Sequence record: NC_101842.1
Strand: one strand, 5' to 3'
Source of the DNA: a phage
Length of the DNA stretch: 64,000 nt
The position numbers and the translations under genes were made by a program. Shown here piece by piece: positions 1,283-63,259 of the stretch; the stretch's first letter is position 1; each line of letters begins with the position of its first letter. The notes beneath the pieces were generated by a model. It saw only the letters and a list, made by a program, of their open reading frames with translations. It was not told the DNA's origin and ran no database searches.

Positions 1283-1301
1283 TACAACAAGATGAACGGT
1301 C

Positions 1302-1327
1302 AGGGGCTTAAAGCCCCTTTCTTTTTG
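1302..1327 (+). terminator. rho-independent terminator (aggggc-ttaa-gcccct + T-run)
   Basis: 6-bp GC stem, tetraloop, T-rich tail immediately after stop of ORF 1019-1282. Confidence 0.65.
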
Positions 1328-1934
1328 TCTTCTCTTTTCCTACCATAAACGGCCCTACCTGGCAAGTGGAATAATTGACGAGCCATCAATCCCACACACT
1401 GTACAAATATACATGGAAAATAACTATTGCATAATTTTTCATTGTGTGGTAGCAAGGCCATTTTTACCCGTTTTACCTTCCAAAATTGCACGTAATGCCG
1501 CTATTGCACAAATTTTAACCTGATGCACATCTCCAATATCTTGTCAACAACTAAAAATCTTTATAAGTCATGCACTTACATAACCACAAAAGCGTGTTCT
1601 ACGTGAAAAATCGAGTATAACTATAGCCGCCAGATCTCAGAATTTACGTACGCTCACCAGTCTATAGCCTGCTAAGTATTTATTCCAACCATAGAATAAC
1701 GGAATAGTCAATACCTGCATAAAATAATTATTCGTGTAAACTGCATAACATAAATCGGCTAGGATGTCAACATTTTTCGTAAACAGCTCGAAATTATAAC
1801 GGTGAGTTATAATAAACAGAGAAATCTTTAGTCGTCTAATGTTTACTGTACATTACTATACTGACTGGAATCATTAGATGACTAAGAGAAAGATAAGAAA
1901 TCATTAACAATGCAATTGTTTTATTCGTAACAAT

Positions 1935-2112
1935 AAGGCAACTATGCAAACGAATGGCATGGCGCGACGGAGTCGCGACATAATATAAAAGCAGTAACCA
2001 TCACCCCCGTGATAGTTTGTCTGCAAACTATTAATCAGATCATAGTTGCCTTGTATTTAGTTAATCATGACATAACAAGCAAGGCAACTATAGATCTGCT
2101 AATAGTTGCCCT
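1935..2112. repeat. two inverted-repeat pairs of AAGGCAACTAT / ATAGTTGCC
   Basis: AAGGCAACTAT at 1935-1945 and 2071-2081; inverse ATAGTTGCC(T/C)T at 2042-2052 and 2102-2112. Confidence 0.7.
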
Positions 2113-2194
2113 GCTTTTATATTATGTCATGCTAATTATAATCAGTGCGATTATTGTCATGTATAATTATTGTCATGCAAACGAATGGCATGGC
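1944..2194. repeat. 20-bp perfect direct repeat ATGCAAACGAATGGCATGGC (two copies)
   Basis: copies at 1944-1963 and 2175-2194; second preceded by tandem ATTATTGTCATG x2. Confidence 0.7.
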
Positions 2195-2204
2195 TGATTA
2201 TCGG

Positions 2205-2296
2205 TGTGTAAACAGTCAATCATGTAAATGGTTAGCATGTGAACAATCAGGAATGTAAACAATCCAGTGTGTAAACTAATAGGTGTGTAAAAGTGT
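2205..2296. repeat. six iteron-like direct repeats of consensus RTGTAAAC
   Basis: gtgtaaac, atgtaaat, atgtgaac, atgtaaac, gtgtaaac, gtgtaaaa spaced about 15 bp. Confidence 0.6.
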
Positions 2297-2854
2297 CATG
2301 TTGTGTCAGTTAGGTCACATTATGTCAGACAAGTTTTTCCCCTCTTTGTCAAGTGCTGCATGAAAAATTTACAAGCTTGTATGGTAGCATTTTTGCGGCC
2401 CTGTTTACATTCAGGAGTGTATGTATAATCCTTGGTGTGTGGGCGTTTAGACGTCTAGACGGTTGGAAGTATGCAGGTCAATATCTAATCTATTGGCTGC
2501 TAACTATATCCCACACAAATGATAAGAAATATAATTGTTATATGCGTAAACTGTAACTCATGTTATCAATCCCTGTATGTATCGCCAGTGGTGCGCATAA
2601 TGGGTATTATGTTAAATTGCCCGTAATGATAACTATTCTCACAATGATAGGTATTCTCATTCACCCCCACAAGATAGGTTGCAAATGTTGTGCCACTGTG
2701 TGAACGGCCTAGCCTATTAATTTGCCTCACTGCCTTGATATTTGAGAATTGTTATAAGAATGAGAAGTATTCCCATTTCGTCCGCCTGGCAGCACTCCTG
2801 TAGGTCAGGTCAAAATCGTGGTAGAATTGGGCCTGTTCAGATATTTCTGGCTGA

Positions 2855-4064
2855 CTCTTCAGGTCTGTGTGGGAAAAGCCAACCTCTCCGGCGGGGCATG
2901 GGGTCATGACGGGAAAATTGCAGGTCAATTAAAAAATTTACGTGGTGTATGAAGCGCTCTTCAGGTAAGGCATGTATTATGGGATGAAACCCTCTTCAGG
3001 CAATGATATTTGTGGGTGTGATATTTGCTGGAAAGCCAGATATGACGGGACTCCCGGCGGGGCAGGGGTAGTACAGACAGGGAAAATATGGAGGATGTGG
3101 TTGGGTAAATTGATCAGGCAGGTAGAGTATGGAATATGTTACAGGTATGTTAAATAGGGAGGCTGAATATCTGTAGGATTTGTGTGTAAAATCAAAGACT
3201 TAAGTGGTGTTGTGGTATTTTCTATAAATAATTCAAGTTTAATAGGTAATATTTGTCTCTATTCGCTTTGTGTGGTAAACAGATTCAGATGAGATTGGTT
3301 TACAAGTGTATACATAATATACAAATTAAAGATACAAGAAACCCCCCTCCCCCTTCGGCTACCATTCACCTTTTCCTCTGACTGGTACTTAAACACTTAT
3401 TCAGACTCTTCAGGTTATCACCCATATATCATATGGCAGTGACTGGTGTCCTCCGGCCCCTCTTTCGTCACCCGTCCGCTTCGCCATGCTAATGCCATAG
3501 CCAATGGTTCGGTTGTTCACCCTGCTCACTCAGGTGTATCTCCATACCCCTTCAAACCGAAGAGAACAGAAAACCCGAATTACTCGGTAAAAGAAAAGAG
3601 AAGAACTTAATTTTATCAGGATAGGCAAGAATGTCAAGGCATGACTGCTCACTAAACAAGCAAACAGTCATGTGTGGGAGGTAAGTGATTGTGGTGGTGG
3701 GAAATTTAGTTGAAAGATGTGCTACAGGTGCGCTTCCAGCACTTTAGCAGGGCAGCTAATTGTGTGTCAGTCCAGCGGTTCATCCTCTACTTCACTGAAA
3801 TCAATGTTCATGGTCTCTTCCCAACCATCGATCTCAGCACAAGAGTGGAGTTCTTTAGGACTTACTCCCAAAGCATCAGCAACAGAGTCCATATTTAACA
3901 CCTCTGGCAGGTATGATTCATCGAATTCAAGGTAAATCAGGCCACGAGTGTTGTCAGCTCCACCAAATATTTCTATCTTCATGAAATCTCCTCTGGAAAT
4001 GAGAGTGTGAACAGGGTTTTATACGTTCCGATGCACAGGAATTATGCACGTTTGCCTCTTCAGG
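2855..4064. repeat. dispersed 9-mer CTCTTCAGG (5 copies) plus duplicated CCGGCGGGGCA(T)GGGG block
   Basis: CTCTTCAGG at 2855, 2957, 2992, 3406, 4056; ccggcggggcatgggg at about 2886 and ccggcggggcagggg at about 3052. Confidence 0.65.
3767..3982 (-). CDS. hypothetical small acidic protein (71 aa)
   Basis: ORF track; N-terminus MKIEIFGG resembles other MK(I/V)E(I/L) small proteins in the array. Confidence 0.4.
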   Translation of the reverse strand: MKIEIFGGADNTRGLIYLEFDESYLPEVLNMDSVADALGVSPKELHSCAEIDGWEETMNIDFSEVEDEPLD

Positions 4065-4103
4065 TCATGCTTTAGCATGAGGAACCTGTGTGGGCTCGGT
4101 GCT

Positions 4104-4316
4104 TCATAGTCTACCACCCCTGAACTCTTCGTGCTCAGGCATAATAGAGAACCAGATATCTACGATGTCCTCCCACGTCAGGTCATCAGCCTCAGGATCT
4201 GTCTGGGACGAAGATGAAGAGTCCTCAGAATATAAGTTTTCCTCTTTAACTGGCTCATCCAAGGGACATATGGTCACTCCTTCGGATGTCTCTTCAGATA
4301 CATGTGTGTTGATCAT
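4104..4316 (-). CDS. hypothetical small acidic protein (70 aa)
   Basis: ORF track; very acidic, Ser-rich. Confidence 0.35.
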   Translation of the reverse strand: MINTHVSEETSEGVTICPLDEPVKEENLYSEDSSSSSQTDPEADDLTWEDIVDIWFSIMPEHEEFRGGRL

Positions 4317-4402
4317 GTTCCACCCGTGAGTATTCCGGCAACAGCCGCTATGGAAGTAATGATCATCAGGATCACCACTAAAACTTCAGACAATGTTCTC
4401 AT
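4313..4402 (-). CDS. putative 29-aa single-pass hydrophobic peptide (MRTLSEVLVVILMIITSIAAVAGILTGGT)
   Basis: hand-translated; ATGA start/stop overlap with ORF 4104-4316; promoter-like TTGACA-17-TAGTAT upstream on minus strand. Confidence 0.3.
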   Translation of the reverse strand: MRTLSEVLVVILMIITSIAAVAGILTGGT

Positions 4403-4618
4403 TGTGTATTCCATATTCTCCAAACTGTGTGGATACTATCACGGTAGCGGTAATGTGTCAACAGAAACGCCGCGAGGGTTTGGTTAAAATCCGAGCGTAT
4501 GGTGATTTGGGTCAAAACGGACGTGCGTTCTCGCTACGCTCGAAAGAGAGATTTGTTTGTAGGAAGCTCTTAAACGCTCTGTAATGAGATTATCTGTCCA
4601 AGGTATGCAATCGTGCAC

Positions 4619-4650
4619 CAGATAAAGAAAAGGACGCCACAGAGCGTCCT
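4619..4650 (-). terminator. rho-independent terminator-like hairpin (minus strand)
   Basis: 7-bp stem aggacgc/gcgtcct; T-rich tract follows on minus strand; after ORF 4675-4986. Confidence 0.45.
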
Positions 4651-40599: not shown

Positions 40600-40950
40600 T
40601 CAGTAGATGTTTTGTTTAATCTCTATTCCAAACTTCTTGAATGAGTCAGCAGCAAGCATAAATTTACGAGCTGCCGATGGATTAGAAGTATGCACGAAAA
40701 TAATCACGTTGTCAATAAGTGGTGGCTTTCCGAATACAAGTTTCTCCTCTAGCGCAGAGAAGCAGTCGTACCCTTCAAGCACTTCACCTAGATCATTGTC
40801 AAAATACCACTCAGATACGCGTCTGTAGAGCTTTCTCTTATCATTAAGAAAATCCATAAACTCAGAAGAATTCTTTAGCCACAGAGCGTCTAGGAGTCCA
40901 TAATCTGACGGATCTCTAAAATCATCAAGCCACACAATCCACTTCTTCAT
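40600..40950 (-). CDS. hypothetical protein (116 aa)
   Basis: ORF track; ATGA overlap with upstream gene. Confidence 0.45.
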   Translation of the reverse strand: MKKWIVWLDDFRDPSDYGLLDALWLKNSSEFMDFLNDKRKLYRRVSEWYFDNDLGEVLEGYDCFSALEEKLVFGKPPLIDNVIIFVHTSNPSAARKFMLAADSFKKFGIEIKQNIY

Positions 40951-41882
40951 TGCATATAGTCCTCGTTGTGGAAATAGCAGTCAAGTATCTCACGGCGTTC
41001 CTGCTCCAGGAGGCAGTTCCATACATCCTCTGTGTAGTTGTTACGAATGAAGTTTACCATGCCGTAAAACTCTTCGTCAACACGTTTAAAGATATCATCA
41101 TCCCAAATCTTCCAAGCTTTACCCCTCATTACGGCCTTTCGTGCCAGATAGTATGGAGACTTGATCTTCAACTGCAGATCATAAGGGTAGTAAGGCTTAC
41201 GAATCATATATCCTTCACCTCTTGTTTCTGCAGCTAACTCTTTTGCATAGCTGAACGGAATTTCACGCACAGTGTGAGGACGTTTTGCACCAAGGTATTT
41301 GGCAATCCCATCTAAAGCGGCTTCTGGTAGCATTATTCCAGAATCATTATATCTGCAACCTATCAAATATGCGCCATGATCTTCCTGAACAATATGCGGA
41401 TCTGAAGGGTGACAAATTTCAAACATGAATGTCATGTTTTCATTGCCCATAACCTTCTTGATAAGATCTAAATTACCGCATTGCTCCTGGATGGTTTCCT
41501 TTGCAAGGTTACAATATGGGGAATCAAGAGACCCGGTTGTTGAGAACAATAGTTCACCTTTATGAGATGACACCACACCAAGGAATCCGTTCTTTTTCTC
41601 TACCGCCGTCACAAGCTTATTGTCAGGCAGGTTGGTGGAGTTTTCTCCCAAGTTAAACACTTTTGTGAAGGGCCATGCCACAACATTTCCTTCATTACCG
41701 ACAACAATGCCTCGGCACTCCAGTAATCGAGGAGACAAATGCCATAAGTTGTTGTAGAATACTTTTCTGGCATATTTATAGATCTTTAACCCAAGATCTG
41801 GGTAATATCTGCTGGTTACAAGACCTTTGTCAACTAGGTCGTCTGCATTAAAATACTTCATCATACGTTCCTCATTTGTCAT
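40947..41882 (-). CDS. RNA ligase, T4 Rnl1-like
   Basis: LSPRLLECRGIVV and KVFNLGEN match T4 Rnl1 LPDALECRGIMF and KFFNLNEN; motif I lysine in VEKKNGFLG. Confidence 0.7.
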   Translation of the reverse strand: MTNEERMMKYFNADDLVDKGLVTSRYYPDLGLKIYKYARKVFYNNLWHLSPRLLECRGIVVGNEGNVVAWPFTKVFNLGENSTNLPDNKLVTAVEKKNGFLGVVSSHKGELLFSTTGSLDSPYCNLAKETIQEQCGNLDLIKKVMGNENMTFMFEICHPSDPHIVQEDHGAYLIGCRYNDSGIMLPEAALDGIAKYLGAKRPHTVREIPFSYAKELAAETRGEGYMIRKPYYPYDLQLKIKSPYYLARKAVMRGKAWKIWDDDIFKRVDEEFYGMVNFIRNNYTEDVWNCLLEQERREILDCYFHNEDYMQ

Positions 41883-41925
41883 TTTGTCCCTTTATCCTGC
41901 CACACAAATAACCCAGTGTCAACAC

Positions 41926-41954
41926 TTGAAATTAACAAAACAGTTAGGTATACT
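41926..41954 (+). promoter_or_regulatory. sigma70-like promoter TTGAAA-17-TATACT
   Basis: consensus-like hexamers, 17-nt spacer, about 30 nt upstream of kinase start. Confidence 0.55.
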
Positions 41955-41982
41955 ATCATTGAAATTAAAACGGAGGGTTACT

Positions 41983-42390
41983 ATGTCTAAAATGCTATAT
42001 ATCGTGCGTGGTCTACCAGGGTCTGGCAAATCAACACTGGCAAATGCGCTATCTTTAGAAGGTCTGTACCCACATTTTGAGAACGACATGTTCTGGTACG
42101 ACGATGACGGCAATTACAACTGGGATGCAAGTAAAGTAACACTTGCAGCAAAATGGTGCAAAGATCACGTAGAAGATATGATGCGTATGGGATACGACCG
42201 TATCGTGGTAAGTAATACGTTTACAAAAGAAAAATACGTGCAAAAATATATTGACATGGCAATCAGCTATGGGTATAGTTATACCGTAATCGTGGTTGAA
42301 AACCGCCACGGTAATAAAAGCATTCATGCTTCAGACGAGGTTGTGGATCGTATGGAGCGCCAGCTTAAAAACTGCATCAAACTTAAATGA
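41983..42390 (+). CDS. polynucleotide 5'-kinase-like P-loop kinase
   Basis: LYIVRGLPGSGKST resembles T4 Pnk kinase N-terminus; start refined to ATG after acggaggg RBS. Confidence 0.65.
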   Translation: MSKMLYIVRGLPGSGKSTLANALSLEGLYPHFENDMFWYDDDGNYNWDASKVTLAAKWCKDHVEDMMRMGYDRIVVSNTFTKEKYVQKYIDMAISYGYSYTVIVVENRHGNKSIHASDEVVDRMERQLKNCIKLK

Positions 42391-42397
42391 GGAATGT

Positions 42398-42952
42398 ATG
42401 AAATACTTTGTAACAAGCGACACACACTTTCTCCACCAGCGGGTCATGGAGTTTGATTCATGTCAAAAACACAGATCTCAATATGATCACAATCTTGACA
42501 GTATGAATGCGGGAATCATCACCAAGTGGAACTCTGTTGTGTCACCTGCAGACACTGTGTTCCACCTGGGAGATATTGCGTGCACTAATGATAAGAATAT
42601 CAACAACTTACTTCCAGATATTCTAAATATGTTGAACGGACATATTATTCTTGTTCGTGGCAACCATGACACAAGGACGACTGTCAGAATTATGAAAGAG
42701 TTCGGTCATGAGGTTGTAGATTATTACGAGCTTCGCCACAACAAGAATTTGATCTGTATGAGCCATTACCAGTTTGCAAAGTGGAACAGAAAGCCTCACG
42801 GATCAGTCCAACTGTTCGGTCATGCTCACGGAACCACACAACAGTTGTTTGGCAGACAGTTTGATGTCGGTTGGGATGTGTGGGGGAGACTCTTACCATT
42901 AGAAGAGGCATACCGTATTGCAATGAGTTTTGCTATTGACAGCGGGGAGTAA
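42398..42952 (+). CDS. calcineurin-like metallophosphoesterase
   Basis: SDTHF, GDIACTN, GNHD, GHAHG motifs; start refined to MKYFVTSD. Confidence 0.7.
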   Translation: MKYFVTSDTHFLHQRVMEFDSCQKHRSQYDHNLDSMNAGIITKWNSVVSPADTVFHLGDIACTNDKNINNLLPDILNMLNGHIILVRGNHDTRTTVRIMKEFGHEVVDYYELRHNKNLICMSHYQFAKWNRKPHGSVQLFGHAHGTTQQLFGRQFDVGWDVWGRLLPLEEAYRIAMSFAIDSGE

Positions 42953-42999
42953 TCCCTGCTATTTTAAAGAAAATTGCCACACAAGGAGAATCAGGAGAT

Positions 43000-43350
43000 A
43001 TGAAAGATGGGGATAAGCTGCTATATCTTAAAGTCCCCCTTGAAATACTATCTATGTCAAAAGTTTTGAATGACACAACTGGGGAGGTTGTTGTTCTTGA
43101 CTTGTATGACAAGATCGTATACTGCTACCTGCACAACTGGTATAAGCTTGGAGGAAGTTCACGCTTCACACCCAGCACAAGGAAAATTGCAGCAGATGTT
43201 GGAATAAAGAAAACAAAAGCAGCAGCGTGCGTTAAAACTTTAGAATGTGCGGGAGTGGTTGAAATATCCACACAAGGGAGAGGTAAAAGATGCACATTTT
43301 CCAAAGTTTTGCCACCAGAAGAAGTTATTCGAATGTCAACAACTGGTTAG
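43000..43350 (+). CDS. small putative HTH DNA-binding protein (116 aa)
   Basis: helix-turn-helix-like segment TRKIAADVGIKKTKAAACVKTLE; tandem palindromic repeats immediately downstream. Confidence 0.4.
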   Translation: MKDGDKLLYLKVPLEILSMSKVLNDTTGEVVVLDLYDKIVYCYLHNWYKLGGSSRFTPSTRKIAADVGIKKTKAAACVKTLECAGVVEISTQGRGKRCTFSKVLPPEEVIRMSTTG

Positions 43351-43425
43351 ACCAGTAAAAACTTAAATATCTGTACTATAAGGATTCGTATGTTTTATGT
43401 TCGCTCTGGAGCAGAGGTTAGTAAC

Positions 43426-43507
43426 TGTCCGTGATACGGACACTACTGTCCGTCACGCGGACACATCTGCCCGTAATACGGACACTAACTGTCCGTGATA
43501 CGGACAC
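43426..43507. repeat. four tandem 18-bp palindromic iterons (TGTCCGT-N-ACGGACAC), period 21-22 bp
   Basis: copies at 43426-43443, 43447-43464, 43468-43485, 43490-43507. Confidence 0.8.
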
Positions 43508-43640
43508 ATAAAGAATATAACTAAAATAACTAAATAATAAAAAATAAAAGATCTAGTACTTATGGTACTAAGTACATATACTTAACTTATGTAGAATATA
43601 CTAGATCCTAAGTACCATGTTTTAAATTTATTACTTACTA
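43508..43640. other. AT-rich tract with short inverted repeats, adjacent to iterons
   Basis: strongly A+T-biased with TAGTAC/GTACTA and CTAAGTAC repeats. Confidence 0.5.
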
Positions 43641-43905
43641 TGGGCAGTGTCGGCCCTTCATTGGCACTCGCCTACGAGGGGCGAGATGCCGGGCCTCTTT
43701 GGTGCACACAATAACAGAAGTTCATACATACAGGTCTGTTAACATGTGTGGGAGCGAAGCGATAGCGCAGGCCAAAGGCCGAGCACTGATGTGGACCACC
43801 GACGAAAGCTTGCCAGCGCCGTAAGGAGTCGGTTGAGAGTCTCCCGCGCGAGCTTGGATGAAGTTTATGTGTGGAAACTGACAAGAAGGCCCCTAAATCG
43901 CTCCA
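43640..43905 (+). ncRNA. candidate structured non-coding RNA (G+C-rich island with nested stems); strand unknown
   Basis: G+C-rich relative to flanks; nested pairings ggccc/gggcc, ggca/tgcc, ctcgcc/ggcgag at about 43650-43695; only ORF is an antisense low-complexity frame. Confidence 0.25.
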
Positions 43906-44010
43906 CAGCTATATAAACTATACCAGGTAATGCAATCGCACCAGTTTGGTAGAAAAGCTCGTTACAAAGCGATACAGTGAGTTTTTCTATAACTTGAAGA
44001 GGAGGCAGCT

Positions 44011-44589
44011 ATGGGTTCACGCAAAGATGACCGTGAAAAGATTGCAAAACGTTATCAGAATGAAGAACAGATGGAGAAAACTTTCAAGTGGAAGCCCGGT
44101 TTCCAGCGTAATCATTCTAACGCTCGTGATCGTAAGCATCCGGATAAGTGGCTAACACCGCCAAATGATGGCATGCAGGTTGGGGATGAGAAGGAGATGT
44201 CGCCTGGAAAAGATGGCAACTACATTCGCACTAAGGACGCTGGTCCAAAGGATGACAGCTATCTTGTAGATAAGGTTCTTGATGGTATCAATGTAGATGT
44301 TGACACTGCACGAAACCTTTTTCTTGGGTGGTATCGCACAGGTTTTTTCGACATCAAGGCTATTCGTCGTGTTTGTGATATTAAAAAGTCTGCATATGAT
44401 GACGACTCGTTACATCGCACCCTGAGACAATATTCAGAAAGATATGGTCATCCGGTTATCACTCTTGACGATGTTAACGAAGTGATGTATCATGCAGAGG
44501 TTGTTGCAGGAAGATTTGGTGATGCATATCTTGATATCCTTTCTGCAAAGGATGAGGTAATGTTAAATAAGATTTACTATGAACGCTGA
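44011..44589 (+). CDS. hypothetical protein (192 aa)
   Basis: ORF track; strong RBS gaggagg. Confidence 0.5.
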   Translation: MGSRKDDREKIAKRYQNEEQMEKTFKWKPGFQRNHSNARDRKHPDKWLTPPNDGMQVGDEKEMSPGKDGNYIRTKDAGPKDDSYLVDKVLDGINVDVDTARNLFLGWYRTGFFDIKAIRRVCDIKKSAYDDDSLHRTLRQYSERYGHPVITLDDVNEVMYHAEVVAGRFGDAYLDILSAKDEVMLNKIYYER

Positions 44590-44788
44590 GGAGCGCTTAA
44601 TGAACAACCCGGTAGCAAAGAACTGTAATAAGTTCAACAAGTCTGCAATTCACACTGACAGGAAAAAGAGCTGGTCTCCTGACATTGACGAGGAGCTTGA
44701 GAGTTACTTTGAAGACCTGGTCACTAATGCAGATGAGGTTGCGATTAAAGAATACGCAGACAGGAAGGATAAGGCCGGAATCTGTTGA
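44579..44788 (+). CDS. hypothetical small protein (69 aa)
   Basis: ORF track. Confidence 0.4.
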   Translation: MNAEERLMNNPVAKNCNKFNKSAIHTDRKKSWSPDIDEELESYFEDLVTNADEVAIKEYADRKDKAGIC

Positions 44789-45886: not shown

Positions 45887-45961
45887 GCCCTGTTAGCTTA
45901 GTGGATAAAGCAGCGGCCTTCTAAGCCGTTGACACTGGTTCGAGTCCAGTACGGGGTGCCA
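45887..45961 (+). tRNA. tRNA-Arg (anticodon TCT)
   Basis: hand-folded cloverleaf: acceptor gccctgt/acggggt, anticodon loop cttctaa, T-loop ttcgagt, encoded CCA. Confidence 0.7.
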
Positions 45962-45965
45962 AATT

Positions 45966-46052
45966 GGGGAGTTATCCCGTAGGGGTAGCGGTGTAGACTG
46001 TAAATCTATTGTCATTGCGACTCGGGTGGTTCGACTCCACCACTCCCCACCA
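45966..46052 (+). tRNA. tRNA-Tyr (anticodon GTA), long variable arm
   Basis: acceptor ggggagt/actcccc, anticodon loop ctgtaaa, T-loop ttcgact, encoded CCA. Confidence 0.75.
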
Positions 46053-46166
46053 AATTTATAGTTTTAAATGCATAAATCATACAGATAATGGCATTGATAT
46101 TTATCGTCGTTTATACTAGTCACTAACTGCTCGAAAATCAGTGTCATTATTAGTATTGTTTATAAA

Positions 46167-46257
46167 TGAGGGTAGGGAGCAATGGTGCTCAAGCGGTCTT
46201 GAAAACCGTCCCGTTGAGGATGACTTGATGATGGTTCGATTCCATTACCCTCAGCCA
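46167..46257 (+). tRNA. tRNA-Ser (anticodon TGA), long variable arm
   Basis: acceptor tgagggt/accctca, 3-bp D stem, anticodon loop cttgaaa, T-loop ttcgatt, discriminator G, encoded CCA. Confidence 0.65.
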
Positions 46258-46355
46258 TATTGTTGACCTTGTAATTAAGCGAAAGCCGGAAGCAGAACCG
46301 GATTATCAAATGTTACAGTCGTCATCGCCGACTAGCAACATGGTCAACATACTGA

Positions 46356-46452
46356 GCTAGGTAAGCCCTTTGGCAAGGGCGAGGATTTTTAATCCTGAAA
46401 ATAGACGAGGTAGTCGTTGAATACATAGGTGGTTCGATTCCATCACCTAGCA
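46356..46452 (+). tRNA. atypical tRNA-like element (97 nt)
   Basis: perfect 7-bp acceptor gctaggt/acctagc, canonical T-arm, D-arm-like hairpin, but irregular anticodon arm and about 29-nt variable region; no CCA. Confidence 0.4.
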
Positions 46453-46459
46453 CCTTTTT

Positions 46460-46535
46460 GCTGATGTAGCACAATTGGTAGTGCAATTGATTTGTAATCA
46501 ATAGGTTGCAGGTTCAAGTCCTGCCATCAGCACCA
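46460..46535 (+). tRNA. tRNA-Thr (anticodon TGT)
   Basis: acceptor gctgatg/catcagc, anticodon loop tttgtaa, T-loop ttcaagt, encoded CCA. Confidence 0.75.
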
Positions 46536-46536
46536 T

Positions 46537-46611
46537 GGCCCTGTAGCTGGAAGGTTCAAGCAAGCGACTCATAATCGCCAGACGGTGGTTCAATTCCACC
46601 CAGGGCCACCA
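46537..46611 (+). tRNA. tRNA-Met or tRNA-Ile2 (anticodon CAT), elongator type
   Basis: acceptor ggccctg/cagggcc with G1-C72, anticodon loop ctcataa, T-loop ttcaatt, encoded CCA. Confidence 0.65.
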
Positions 46612-46622
46612 AATAATAAATA

Positions 46623-46699
46623 CTCCGCGTAGCTCAGCTTGGTAGAGCGCCTGATTTGGGATCAGGAGGTCGAGTGTTCGAATCACTCCGTGGAGACCA
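46623..46699 (+). tRNA. tRNA-Pro (anticodon TGG)
   Basis: C1-G72 start, D-loop agcttggta, anticodon loop tttggga, T-loop ttcgaat, encoded CCA. Confidence 0.75.
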
Positions 46700-47519: not shown

Positions 47520-47803
47520 GAGTTGCTACACTGTTTATTGTGTGCTTGTTATTATGTGGGTGTGCAACCAGCGTTGAGAGAGAATACAAGATTGACCCTC
47601 CGGATGTAGGAAGGTTGATTGTTAAACCCCCGGAAGGTGCCATGAAACCACCTGCTAAAGCTATGCCTTTGAAGAAAGGTGCGCCAGATGCAGTGAATTC
47701 TGGCATTATGAGGGATAATAATCTGTCTTGTAGCAATGATAGAGCTAAATTGATCATTTTGCAAGACTATATTAGAACACTGTTTCCAAAGGAGAGAGGT
47801 TAA
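47516..47803 (+). CDS. o-spanin-like outer-membrane lipoprotein (Pro-rich)
   Basis: signal with LLLCGC lipobox-like site, Pro-rich mature region. Confidence 0.55.
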   Translation: MRVATLFIVCLLLCGCATSVEREYKIDPPDVGRLIVKPPEGAMKPPAKAMPLKKGAPDAVNSGIMRDNNLSCSNDRAKLIILQDYIRTLFPKERG

Positions 47804-49350
47804 TGTCTAAGATTTACGGACCGTGTTCTGAAAAGCAGAAGATGATCCTAGAAAACGATGCAGATATTTTGGTAATCGGCGGTGCCGCAGGGTCTGGCAA
47901 GTCGTTCCTCTTGCAGTTGATGCCACTTAAAATTATTGATGACCCCCACAGCTCTGTGGTTATGTTCCGAAGAACAACCCCACAGTTGGAAGGTGAGGGT
48001 GGACTATGGCCTAAAGCAGTAGCTATTTATAGTGATCTGCCTGAAAACATTAAGCCAAAGTTCAGAGAGAAGGATCATAAGTTCATTTTTCCACGGTTTG
48101 ATCCGAACACTGGTAAGTGGGATAGAAGCAAAAAGGGAGCTGTTGTAAAATACTGCCATATGGAGTATGTACAAGATAAGCTTAACCATCAGGGGCTTGA
48201 GTACACCATGGTTTGCTTCGATGAGGGCACGCAGTTCGAATGGGAGCAGATAGACTATCTGATGTCTCGTCTGCGATCTCAGTCAAAGTATCCATCAAGA
48301 ATGGTTATCAGCTGTAACCCCGATTCAGAACACATGCTTGCCAAACTGGTTAGATGGTGGTTGGACGATGAAGGGTATCCAGATCCGGAGAAATGCGGTA
48401 AGAAAAGATATTTTATCCGACGCGACGGTGAATTTATCTGGGGAGACTCTAAAGAAGAGTTGATAGAGAAATACACCACGGTTAACGGACTTGGCGTAGA
48501 GATCAAGCCAAGACCGTTGTCATTCTCGTTCATAGGCGCAACAATATTCGATAATCCTGTCTGTTTGAGAGACAACCCAGAATACCTTGCTTTCCTCGAA
48601 GGTCTACCAGAGCTGGAAAAAGCTCAGCTTCTCCATGGTAACTGGTTTGCAAAGCCTGAGGGTGCAAACTATTTTCAAAGATCTTTCCTTCGTGATGCCG
48701 ATAGAGTACCTCTTGGGTCAGTATCTTGCAGGGCATGGGATAAGGCAGGAACCGAGAGAACTTCCGGTAATAAATTTCCTGACTTTACTGCCAGTATTAA
48801 GGTAAGTAAAGATAGCGACGGCTTTTATTACCTGTCCGGTGATTATTGTCCTGAGAACGTGGATGACGGGAGGTATTCCACAGGTCTGGAAGGCAAGTTC
48901 TGTAAAAAGGCTGGTGAACGAGATGTGATCATCAGGAAACAGGCGCAGTTCGATGGTGATGATTGCATAATCGTCTTCTCTGTGGACCCAGGGCAGGCAG
49001 GTAAGAGTGAGTTCTTAACCTCCTCCAGATCCTTGCTTGCCGAAGGGTTCAGGGTTGAAGAAGACCCAATGCCTTCCAACAAGTCTAAACTGACAAGGTT
49101 CTCACCTTTTGCCAATCTTGCCCAACAAGGAATGGTGAGGATTGTAAAATCCAGTTTCCATCCTGATACTCTGGAAGCATTTCTGACTGAACTTGAAAAA
49201 TTCAACGGGGAAAGATCAACATTTAACAGAAAAGACGACTGGGCCGACTGTGTAGCTTCTGCGATTAATTTCCTAGAGAAAGAGGAGGTAGCACTTCCTT
49301 GTGTGATTCCATCAATCTCATCACCTTCTATGTTCAAGCGTTTTATCTAA
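47803..49350 (+). CDS. terminase large subunit
   Basis: Walker A GGAAGSGKS near N-terminus, 515 aa, directly upstream of portal. Confidence 0.8.
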   Translation: MSKIYGPCSEKQKMILENDADILVIGGAAGSGKSFLLQLMPLKIIDDPHSSVVMFRRTTPQLEGEGGLWPKAVAIYSDLPENIKPKFREKDHKFIFPRFDPNTGKWDRSKKGAVVKYCHMEYVQDKLNHQGLEYTMVCFDEGTQFEWEQIDYLMSRLRSQSKYPSRMVISCNPDSEHMLAKLVRWWLDDEGYPDPEKCGKKRYFIRRDGEFIWGDSKEELIEKYTTVNGLGVEIKPRPLSFSFIGATIFDNPVCLRDNPEYLAFLEGLPELEKAQLLHGNWFAKPEGANYFQRSFLRDADRVPLGSVSCRAWDKAGTERTSGNKFPDFTASIKVSKDSDGFYYLSGDYCPENVDDGRYSTGLEGKFCKKAGERDVIIRKQAQFDGDDCIIVFSVDPGQAGKSEFLTSSRSLLAEGFRVEEDPMPSNKSKLTRFSPFANLAQQGMVRIVKSSFHPDTLEAFLTELEKFNGERSTFNRKDDWADCVASAINFLEKEEVALPCVIPSISSPSMFKRFI

Positions 49351-55599: not shown

Positions 55600-56058
55600 A
55601 TGCTAAAGGTTAAATGTCAAACAAGGTTCAACCTAAAGCGTTTAGATCGCTTCTACAAAGAACTTGTGAGACTTGAAAGTAAAACAATAACCTACGGCTT
55701 TTATGACGAACCTCACCCGTCAGGCTTAAATATGGCAACATTGGCAGCCATTCACAACTTCGGTTGGAACGGGCTGCCTGTTCGCAATTTCATGGAGACA
55801 GCTTTTGCATTTCACAGCACTCAACTACAGACCTTGACAGAAAAATTGTTGAGAGCTATGGCTAGAGGATCAAGTGCAGAGGCTATTCTTAAGCAGATGG
55901 GGGACACAGGGGCCAAAGCTATCCAGTTTGTTATTGAGGCTGGGCAGTTTAGTAATCCTACTGTTAGTGAGCAGTGGGCACAAGAGAAAGGCTTCAACGA
56001 GGCTATGCGGCATTACGATGTGCTGCTTGAATCTGCAACCTTTAAAATCGGACAGTAA
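55600..56058 (+). CDS. hypothetical head-tail joining or structural protein (start refined to MLKVKCQ)
   Basis: ATG with gaggga RBS. Confidence 0.4.
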   Translation: MLKVKCQTRFNLKRLDRFYKELVRLESKTITYGFYDEPHPSGLNMATLAAIHNFGWNGLPVRNFMETAFAFHSTQLQTLTEKLLRAMARGSSAEAILKQMGDTGAKAIQFVIEAGQFSNPTVSEQWAQEKGFNEAMRHYDVLLESATFKIGQ

Positions 56059-62374: not shown

Positions 62375-63259
62375 ATGCCAAGCAATATAGTTGATGAAAA
62401 AGACCTGTACAAGCCTCAAGAGGTTAAATCTCCAAAGGCTGAAAAGGCAGAGCAGCAAACTGAAAGCGATGTAAAGTATACTATGTTTGTCAGCGGTCTT
62501 AACTATGGTGGTCGCAATACGGAGATGAAGGGTAAAAACTTTACTAACGATCTTGCCATTATCTTCGACCAGGTTGAGAACTATTCTTTCAAACATTCTG
62601 TTGATAAAACTGGTTTTGCAGTGGAAGATAAATCTACCATGTCAGACCACGCTGTAATTAAAGATGGTGTATTTTCTTTTACTGGTAGGGTAAATACATC
62701 CCCACATATAATTTATGAGCAAAACTACATTGATAGGAATACTGACTCTAAAAACCCTGCAGCATCTATGCGACCAGGTGCCGCACTGGAGGCTTTGACT
62801 GAGATCATTAATAAGCGACAGTTGGTTTCTTTGGTTACCGAGGAGAGACTTCTTGAGAACTACATCATAACCAGCCTTTCTGCCAGCAAGTCTGTTGGTG
62901 AAGGTGCTGCAATGGTTTTTGATGTAGAACTTACAGAGTTCCGCACATTCTACTTGAACAAGGTTGTTAATGCAACCGTATACAGCAACCCTAAGAAAGT
63001 AGGCAAGACCCAACAAAAAGGTGCTGTCAACGACTGTAAGAATGGTAGTAACGTAGGTAACAAGAGGGACACAGGGGCATTTGCAGACACTGCATCCACA
63101 AATGCTGCAGAGGAGTGGCAGCCATATAAATCTATGATGTGGACAGATGAAAACGGTGTCACCCAATCGGCTGCTGATTGGTATTATCAAGAATATGGAA
63201 GACCTTCTACCATAGTCCCATCTGAGCAGGGAAACTACGACAAAGTTAACGGGAAATAA
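62375..63259 (+). CDS. distal tail protein candidate (294 aa)
   Basis: first gene after tape measure; assignment by synteny only. Confidence 0.4.
   Translation: MPSNIVDEKDLYKPQEVKSPKAEKAEQQTESDVKYTMFVSGLNYGGRNTEMKGKNFTNDLAIIFDQVENYSFKHSVDKTGFAVEDKSTMSDHAVIKDGVFSFTGRVNTSPHIIYEQNYIDRNTDSKNPAASMRPGAALEALTEIINKRQLVSLVTEERLLENYIITSLSASKSVGEGAAMVFDVELTEFRTFYLNKVVNATVYSNPKKVGKTQQKGAVNDCKNGSNVGNKRDTGAFADTASTNAAEEWQPYKSMMWTDENGVTQSAADWYYQEYGRPSTIVPSEQGNYDKVNGK

Follow-up and report, generated by a model that had tools for sequence, protein, structure and literature searches.

A conserved, structured non-coding element beside origin-like repeats of rV5-like phages is shared with small satellite-like Escherichia coli plasmids

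Iteron-type replication origins combine initiator-binding repeats with segments of contrasting base composition: ori-lambda contains four iterons, an A+T-rich region and a palindrome, RK2 oriV contains an A+T-rich and then a G+C-rich region, and RSF1010 oriV contains iterons, G+C and A+T segments and the ssiA/ssiB hairpins. In the phages G4 and phiX174, and at the single-strand initiation (ssi) and primosome assembly (pas) sites of plasmids, short stable hairpins beside the origin are recognised, by their shape together with a few bases, by primase or by the helicase loader. Here we describe a G+C-rich island at positions 43640-43905 of a phage sequence of 64,000 nucleotides (nt) (record NC_101842.1; this whole stretch, as analysed, is called the window). 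An earlier note, made from the letters alone, had proposed the island as a candidate non-coding RNA. It is a real, conserved and structured element, previously undescribed, that adjoins origin-like repeats in the phage and recurs in small plasmids of Escherichia coli that look like satellites.

The locus resembles iteron-type origins such as ori-lambda, RK2 and RSF1010 in the order of its parts, from putative initiator-binding repeats through an A+T-rich tract to a G+C-rich palindromic segment. As at those origins, the repeats appear to be initiator-specific, and the structured flank is common to replicons that would use the same replisome. It differs from them in that the candidate initiator of the phage is a DNA-binding domain of 116 amino acids (aa), with the origin itself a prediction, and in that the flank is longer (~200-400 nt), consists of shuffled cassettes joined by TGTGTGG and has no sequence similarity to theirs. 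The sharing of a short non-coding sequence between a helper and a small element without terminase recalls the cos or pac sites common to P4 and P2 or to cos-type phage-inducible chromosomal islands (PICIs) and their helpers; here, unlike in those systems, what is shared is a covarying hairpin, the helper would be a virulent phage with headful packaging, and the small partner, a plasmid, brings capsid and tape-measure genes of its own. ColE1 RNA II, the P4 CI and P1 C4 RNAs and the phi29 packaging RNA (pRNA) are likewise structured, non-coding and located near replication functions, with conserved loops and variable stems, but the present element matches no Rfam family including C4 (E <= 10), its stems are nearly devoid of G.U pairs and it has no defined transcript ends. 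The d(GCGAAGC) mini-hairpin known from ssi- and pas-type origins occurs at 43754-43760, although it is not conserved in the phage EcoIv14a_Aya (hereafter Aya). In contrast to those origins, the primase is of the T7 gp4 type (PMC3606486), and priming at this site is a prediction.

The genome of rV5 is circularly permuted and encodes a T7-gp4-like primase-helicase, and the skew analysis in the 2013 genome paper located no origin (PMC3606486). Vequintavirus genomes in general are likewise reported to be circularly permuted (PMC8407724), so packaging in this genus is by headful (PMC8407724, PMC3606486).

A conserved hairpin element in phages and plasmids

A blastn search with positions 43300-44100 identified the window as an rV5-like phage (Vequintavirus), a myovirus of E. 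coli, and matched 118 phage records at 88-100% identity, all 118 of which contain the island. Every record whose taxonomy was looked up belongs to Vequintavirus, including several deposited as 'Campylobacter phage'. With 55.6% G+C against 43.0 +/- 3.4% for all 266-nt segments, the island is the G+C-richest segment of the 64 kb, and its value is reached by 0.016% of sampled segments, essentially the island itself. The tract immediately 5′ of it (43511-43639) has 20.2% G+C. The earlier note was therefore right that the island is richer in G+C than its surroundings, and all of the complementary runs that it listed are present at the places it gave (Table 1).

When compared with Aya, the most divergent phage, the island has changed more slowly than the sequence around it. 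Identity is 98% in the first hairpin (H1), 93% in the core and 96% in the iterons, whereas the neutral yardsticks, third codon positions of the two flanking genes and a spacer, reach 74%, 83% and 78%, respectively. The island is thus under purifying selection, its rate of change lying below that of third codon positions nearby. One part departs from this pattern: the hairpin at 43698-43744 is 77% identical in Aya, has an 18-nt deletion in rV5, Pr121LW and A135, and contains internal changes that are not compensatory, and it is apparently free of constraint. Directly after it, 43745-43797 is near-invariant across 16 phage variants, although the GCGAAGC mini-hairpin within it is altered in Aya.

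Reading frames across the island lack the signature of a protein gene. The open reading frame (ORF) 43746-43916, annotated in rV5 (NC_011041) as hypothetical protein rv5_gp074 and called in several other records, is open in 15 of the 16 phage variants but has a stop at codon 3 in B9-1, and its variable columns number 11, 17 and 10 at codon positions 1, 2 and 3, with no third-position excess and with nearly all changes altering the amino acid. The antisense ORF pointed out by the earlier note exists (70 aa, 43672-43884, minus strand) but is closed by stops in 13 of the 16 related phages compared. In the plasmid copy, read by eye, the conserved core falls in another frame, and searches of Pfam and PHROG with the ORFs of the island returned no match. 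Because 43746-43916 shows no coding signature, rv5_gp074 and its equivalents are probably spurious calls, which is of practical use for annotation of these genomes.

Outside phages, a blastn search of plasmids and of complete genomes of E. coli recovered pieces of the island in small circular plasmids of 13.2-13.7 kb (NZ_CP020521, CP148565, NZ_CP035869 and NZ_CP178698). A further record, NZ_CP043822 (39,610 base pairs, bp), consists of three tandem units of ~13.5 kb with truncated genes in the first unit, and may reflect either true multimerisation or a fault of assembly. A repeat of the search that started from the plasmid copy added CP134895, and two metagenome contigs likewise carry the plasmid-type element. 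The plasmid loci are designated L003-L006, L132, L134, L151 and L152, where L003 is NZ_CP020521, L151 is NZ_CP043822 and L152 is CP134895; across these loci the circular plasmids measure 13.2-13.9 kb. Every plasmid contains 2.2-2.4 kb of non-coding DNA in which iterons of its own precede an array of short hairpins, and the sequence homologous to the island is part of this array. Different plasmids carry different combinations of hairpin cassettes, each cassette starting with TGTGTGG(G), and TGTGTGG/ATGTGGA motifs precede every hairpin cassette of the plasmid copies.

Folding calculations support H1 on either strand. Its minimum free energy (MFE) on the plus strand is -28.1 kcal/mol as RNA (z = -3.6 vs shuffles) and -15.1 kcal/mol as DNA (z = -3.9), and the minus strand does equally well (z = -3.7 as RNA, -3.8 as DNA). 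The whole island (z = -1.4 on the plus strand, -1.8 on the minus strand) and the segment 43745-43860 (z = -0.8 and +0.3) fold no better than their shuffles, so that apart from H1 thermodynamics proves little, and the evidence for the core hairpin is comparative.

The comparative evidence comes from compensatory changes, as expected of a structured nucleic acid, whether RNA or single-stranded DNA. The core stem ACCGAC/GTCGGT of the phage is replaced in most plasmids by GCTGCC/GGCAGC, while the 24-nt loop remains the phage loop GAAAGCTTGCCAGCGCCGTAAGGA but for one base. Double changes affect three of the six pairs of this stem, every sequence-by-pair cell remains paired (100%), and its covariation score was reached by 0 of 500 shuffles. 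H1 of plasmid L003 has U-A in place of G-C at two of 15 pairs, and pairing is kept in 98.7% of the H1 cells. Paralogous cassettes within the plasmids add double changes in 6 of 12 pairs, in two stems with 100% pairing, whereas control structures slid by one to three columns pair in only 0-50% of cells. Across all supported stems, 181 of 183 cells are Watson-Crick, with one G.U and one mismatch, and the hairpin loops are mostly of 3 nt. The lineages behind this covariation are few, namely a phage type, a plasmid type and the L152 type, each near-identical within itself. In L152, the core slot between the ATGTGGA and GAGTCTCCCGCGC blocks is occupied by a third stem, TCCGGAT/ATCCGGA, with an unrelated loop. 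The most widely shared sequence of the element, GAGTCTCCCGCGC, is identical in all plasmid types including L152, and among the phages only position 43840 and one base of phiWec193 vary.

Longer-range pairing fared differently. The runs gggag and ctccc proposed by the earlier note as complementary are present, but their long-range pairing is unproven: the helix (GUGUGGGAG/CUCCCGCGC) is invariant except for unmatched single-base changes in B9-1 (5′ strand) and phiWec193 (3′ strand). The other long-range candidate, GGAGCGA/UCGCUCC, has one compensated change against seven broken cells, so that comparison supports neither of the two. A CUUGC/GUAAG sub-helix within the 24-nt loop was also rejected, being broken by a U-to-G variant. 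The folding and comparative check named in the earlier note upholds two covarying stems in the window, of which H1 also beats its shuffles. Downstream of the core, the phage motifs align with plasmid ...CCCCCTAAATGGCC... and GGTGCAATTGCATTACC, the latter being the phage quasi-palindrome GGTAATGCAATCGCACC reversed; its presence in reversed orientation at the equivalent place suggests a protein-binding site. Together these results identify the island as conserved, non-coding and hairpin-forming.

The distribution of the element is narrow, comprising one phage genus and one plasmid family. In IMG/VR, a 15-nt core pattern gave chance matches only and a 25-nt pattern found one rV5-like contig; a degenerate pattern returned nothing there, although that same contig should have matched. 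The degenerate pattern found five contigs in metagenomes, three of phage and two plasmid-like, and only high-G+C chance matches in 185,579 GTDB representative genomes.

An origin-like module and satellite-like plasmids

In the phage, a gene for a 116-aa winged helix-turn-helix (wHTH) protein, four iterons, an A+T-rich tract and the island follow one another (Table 1). The four iterons are spaced 21, 21 and 22 bp, contain inverted repeats within the copies and are 96-100% conserved in four of five divergent phages compared. At least three direct repeats beside an A+T-rich tract are expected of an iteron-type origin, and the arrangement here comprises four (43422-43507) followed by ~135 bp of A+T-rich sequence. 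The 116-aa protein matches Pfam HTH_36 (E = 8e-5) and phrog_12838, 'replication initiation protein' (E = 8.5e-80), and is 27% identical (E = 1e-6), a weak homology, to the N-terminus of the 298-aa O-like Rep of the plasmids. It thus resembles initiator families, but has no second domain, and its binding to the repeats is predicted only. By tblastn it occurs in 118 records, all of Vequintavirus type.

The plasmids repeat this layout with other parts. In L004-L006, L132, L134 and L152, iterons are followed by a short A+T-rich stretch and the hairpin array in the same orientation as in the phage, with rep located downstream. The iterons differ between phage and plasmids, and the hairpin element is common to both; between plasmid L004 and the 64-kb window it is the only non-coding DNA shared (blastn).

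The plasmids encode phage-like structural proteins: a major capsid protein 24% identical to that of the phage, a Neck1/tail-completion homologue whose aligned region shares 48% identity with window 55687-56028, a baseplate-like protein with 55% identity to window 62504-62845 and a further 52% stretch to 63061, and a tape measure protein, in addition to their O-like replication initiator. Terminase and portal were not found among the encoded proteins. With phage-like structural genes and neither terminase nor portal, the plasmids look like satellites or reduced relatives of rV5-like phages. Their Rep protein has no relatives in the genome or viral collections searched. We found no paper describing these plasmids, and literature searches with the plasmid accessions, and for rV5 or Vequintavirus together with satellites, non-coding RNA or RNA-seq, returned nothing relevant (a search for a citation on ori-lambda also found nothing).

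Table 1. Positions of the features of the locus, numbered as in the window.
Feature	Position	Strand	Description
wHTH gene, 116 aa (rV5 ORF 79)	43000..43350	+	like the DNA-binding domain of replication initiators
Four direct repeats (iterons)	43422..43507		each with an internal palindrome, TGTCCGTGATACGGACA; from repeat search
A+T-rich tract	43508..43645		~135 bp, 20% G+C; three inverted repeats of its own; candidate DNA-unwinding region
Hairpin H1	43646..43697	+	stems span 43652-43695 (43652-56/43691-95, 43663-66/43687-90, 43667-72/43680-85)
Run ggccc/gggcc	43652-56 / 43691-95		part of H1
Run ggca/tgcc	43663-66 / 43687-90		part of H1
Run ctcgcc/ggcgag	43667-72 / 43680-85		part of H1
Variable hairpin (CACACA...TGTGTG)	43698..43744	+	53-94% identity among phages
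TGTGTGG motif	43745-51	+	within 43745..43797
Run gggag/ctccc	43750-54 / 43841-45		long-range
GCGAAGC mini-hairpin	43754-60	+	in near-invariant stretch
GGCC-AAA-GGCC hairpin	43770-80	+	in near-invariant stretch
ATGTGGA motif	43789-95	+	within 43745..43797
Core hairpin, stem ACCGAC/GTCGGT	43798..43833	+	24-nt loop GAAAGCTTGCCAGCGCCGTAAGGA (43804-27), near-invariant
Run ccgac/gtcgg	43799-803 / 43828-32		core hairpin
GAGTCTCCCGCGC block	43837..43849	+	most widely shared sequence of the element
Downstream shared motifs	43868..43942	+	second TGTGTGG 43868-74, GGCCCCTAAATCGC 43888-901, quasi-palindrome GGTAATGCAATCGCACC 43926-42
Downstream gene, rV5 ORF 77, 192 aa (gp073)	44011..44589	+	phrog_12226 (unknown function)

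Candidate roles of the element

Since the island adjoins origin-like repeats and is copied in satellite-like plasmids, it is probably a signal for the phage DNA machinery. As to which signal, we tentatively favour, at somewhat less than even confidence, a cis-acting signal in the flank of the origin, used for priming or helicase loading on a folded strand and copied by the satellites. In such a scheme, opening of the A+T-rich tract would allow the adjacent strand to fold into H1 and the core hairpin; the stems would provide a shape, while the 24-nt loop and the flanking blocks ATGTGGA and GAGTCTCCCGCGC would provide sequence. Phage replication proteins would then read shape and sequence together, either for loading of the T7-gp4-like primase-helicase of the phage (gp230 in rV5) or for the start of a primer, much as single-strand initiation signals act at the origins of plasmids and small phages. 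The satellite-like plasmids have an initiator and iterons of their own together with the same hairpin signal on the same iteron side, so that the helper phage machinery could act on them. We infer three parts of this scheme: that the origin works, that DNA rather than RNA is the active form, and which protein reads it.

Several observations fit an origin-flank signal. Iterons, A+T-rich tract and island are contiguous, with the initiator-like wHTH gene upstream, and order and orientation are the same in most plasmids even though rep lies downstream there. The element also has DNA-like properties, with its near-exclusive Watson-Crick pairing, an H1 that is strand-symmetric and stable with DNA parameters, and 3-nt loops. 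The compensated stems, the strong conservation of H1 and the core, and the sharing of the element despite differing iterons fit as well. Nor is there a consistent transcription signal: the phage copy has no nearby promoter or terminator, and in L004 the strongest same-strand promoter matches lie downstream of the element. Given the position beside iterons and an A+T-rich tract, an origin-level DNA element is at least as good a fit as an RNA.

Other observations weigh against it. The 116-aa protein is a DNA-binding domain alone, and an array of repressor operators could also consist of palindromic sites every 21-22 bp. In L003, ~520 bp with other repeats separate the iterons from H1. The island is almost certainly transcribed as part of a plus-strand unit, the segment 43745-43860 folds 7 kcal/mol better on the plus strand, where it is closed by a helix that contains a G.U pair, and an A to G polymorphism in Aya yields a G.U pair on that strand. 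T7-type primases are not known to need hairpins. Finally, the need of satellites to have a packaging signal in common with the helper is more obvious than their need for a common replication signal. A broader formulation covers both uses: the hairpins and their invariant loop could serve as a 'password' by which plasmid satellites are recognised by rV5-like replication or packaging machinery, the element marking an origin or a pac region, a proposal that we regard as possible but speculative.

Among the alternatives, the one that holds up best is a structured RNA, either a segment, stable or released by processing, of the polycistronic transcript of the plus strand or, as the plasmid signals suggest, a transcript of the minus strand; its 24-nt loop, containing UAAGGAG, would bind a protein or another RNA; we consider it a minority possibility. 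Covarying stems around a conserved loop are the usual signature of a functional RNA hairpin, and the island lies in a plus-strand run of genes with no preceding terminator (layout of PMC3606486), so that an RNA copy of the phage island almost certainly exists. The plus-strand points listed above count in its favour, the MFE and centroid structures of the plus-strand fold of 43745-43860 being identical (-40.3 kcal/mol, vs -33.3 for the minus strand), as does a cUUCGg loop in one plasmid cassette. In L004, the array is flanked on the minus strand by a promoter-like site (7399->7372) and by a hairpin that runs into U-rich sequence (6905->6877). On the same plasmid, a terminator follows the upstream gene of the other strand, that of the element, and the strongest sigma-70 matches on that strand lie downstream of the element, so that context points to the plus strand in the phage and to the minus strand in L004.

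Further searches lend such an RNA little help. The covariance-model search that the earlier note had suggested was run on Rfam and matched no family: Rfam 15 gave no match to the island at the gathering threshold, matches for 43300-44100 at E <= 10 were sub-threshold, at chance level and none centred on the island, and four plasmid loci at E <= 0.1 yielded nothing relevant. ARAGORN found no tRNA or tmRNA in the island, in agreement with the earlier failure to recognise a known RNA by eye. A scan for sigma-70-like promoters, which excludes phage-specific ones, found none within 600 nt upstream of the island on either strand, and no intrinsic terminator was found in 42900-44700 on either strand; the phage island is thus not bracketed by a promoter and terminator of its own, as an independent small RNA gene would be. 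The single G.U in 183 supported cells, the predominance of 3-nt loops, the shuffle comparisons for the whole island and core, and the loss of every long-range helix on comparison also argue against an RNA. Complements of the 24-nt loop in the window and the plasmids amounted to the self-antisense and weak matches, with no convincing target. Of the original proposal of a non-coding RNA, the conserved, non-coding and compensated stem-loops stand, whereas RNA as the active molecule, with neither promoter nor terminator bracketing it, does not follow.

Three kinds of resemblance noticed by eye were rejected: a hammerhead core (CUGAUG...GAAA) is present only in the phage copy, identity to the E. 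coli type I-E and I-F CRISPR repeats is partial and the repeat hairpin is lost, and similarity to DnaA boxes is limited to the CCACA half. The motif CYCTAAATNGC is not enriched in the window.

A pac site, at which the phage terminase would start headful packaging and which terminase-less satellites would copy to be packaged themselves, appears rather unlikely, but is a serious alternative because the plasmids lack terminase and because the element is the only non-coding DNA that L004 shares with the window. The capsid, Neck1-like, tape measure and baseplate-like proteins of the plasmids, encoded without terminase or portal, fit this idea, as do the circularly permuted genomes and the position of the island, which heads the structural block and has the large terminase gene (47803-49350) ~4 kb downstream of it. 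The repeated TGTGTGG/ATGTGGA motifs recall small-terminase binding sites of other pac sites. Covarying paired stems, however, would not be expected of a double-stranded protein-binding site, and L152 carries a different hairpin and loop in the core slot of an element otherwise of the same kind. No small terminase was identified beside the island; the neighbouring gp073, considered as a candidate, has no match in Pfam or by sequence in PDB, and its single-sequence AlphaFold model is unusable (predicted local distance difference test score, pLDDT, 39.5).

It is less likely still that the TGTGTGG-plus-hairpin units are selfish or neutral cassettes, a recombining family of palindromes comparable to repetitive extragenic palindromic (REP) sequences or miniature inverted-repeat transposable elements (MITEs) that spreads among non-coding regions of these phages and plasmids and serves neither. 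The varied combinations of cassettes in the plasmids would suit such a family, as would the abundance of TGTGTGG, whose 27 occurrences in the window (both strands counted) exceed the 9.9 +/- 3.3 expected (0 of 100 shuffles reach 27), and the recurrence of a hairpin pair of L152 in the large non-coding region of phage nomine. Against this, H1 and the core occupy a fixed place in all 118 phages and are conserved far above the neutral proxy, the 24-nt loop has been kept across phage and plasmids while the stem changed, and no transposase or HUH nuclease gene lies nearby. A small protein gene, in the form of a translated rv5_gp074 or 70-aa antisense ORF, can be set aside as highly improbable on the coding tests given above, despite the open frame in most variants and its annotation in several records.

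As an origin-flank signal or a packaging start, the element offers a precise, mutable candidate of ~200 nt in rV5-like phages, and it links these virulent phages to small satellite-looking E. coli plasmids. Were that link functional, it would make for a helper-satellite pair of an unusual kind, in which the satellite of a lytic myovirus resides as a plasmid, with the hairpin as a handle for testing it. Phages of the rV5 type are widely used as candidates for therapy and biocontrol.

Neighbouring genes and further repeats

The island lies between the 116-aa gene and the 192-aa gene gp073, and all genes near it are on the plus strand from ~41.8 kb onward. The 192-aa protein is found only in the same phage genus; because it and the wHTH protein are both confined to this genus, a deeper comparison of the two proteins was precluded. 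The 18 records MG0656xx, deposited as 'Campylobacter phage ...' and marked UNVERIFIED, match this region of the E. coli phage at 97-98% identity, and their host labels are probably wrong, since the one record among them with taxonomy checked sits under Vequintavirus.

A second low-coding region lies at 1300-4600 of the window, ~3.3 kb without an ORF longer than 90 aa, which probably corresponds to the box labelled 'non-coding' in the rV5 paper. On its plus strand TGTGTGG recurs at 2436, 2866, 3269, 3671, 4087 and 4426, roughly every 400 nt, along with five copies of a CTCTTCAGG motif that by eye resembles lambda boxA; the corresponding region of phage nomine shows GACACAAT-type repeats. The motif GGTA(A)TGCAATCG(T)GCACCA has two copies in the window, at 4601-4620 and at 43926-43945. 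The hairpin pair shared by L152 (2655-2681) and phage nomine (L153, 1501-1527) is a 27-nt pair of small hairpins (GGCCCGAAGGG / TAGCTGAAAGCTA) with 96% identity, found in the large non-coding region of some rV5-like phages and absent from this window.

Upstream of the island, genes for RNA ligase 1, polynucleotide kinase/phosphatase and a phosphoesterase (40947-42952) form an RNA-repair set, placed just upstream of the origin-like module and ~3 kb from a tRNA cluster. This cluster, 3′ of the island, contains five tRNAs at 45887-46696, the only Rfam matches of the window at the gathering threshold. Within it lies an odd tRNA-like gene of 99 nt (46356-46454; Rfam, 35.5 bits), to which ARAGORN assigns a 4-nt anticodon and which is annotated elsewhere as 'tRNA-OTHER' or tRNA-Lys.

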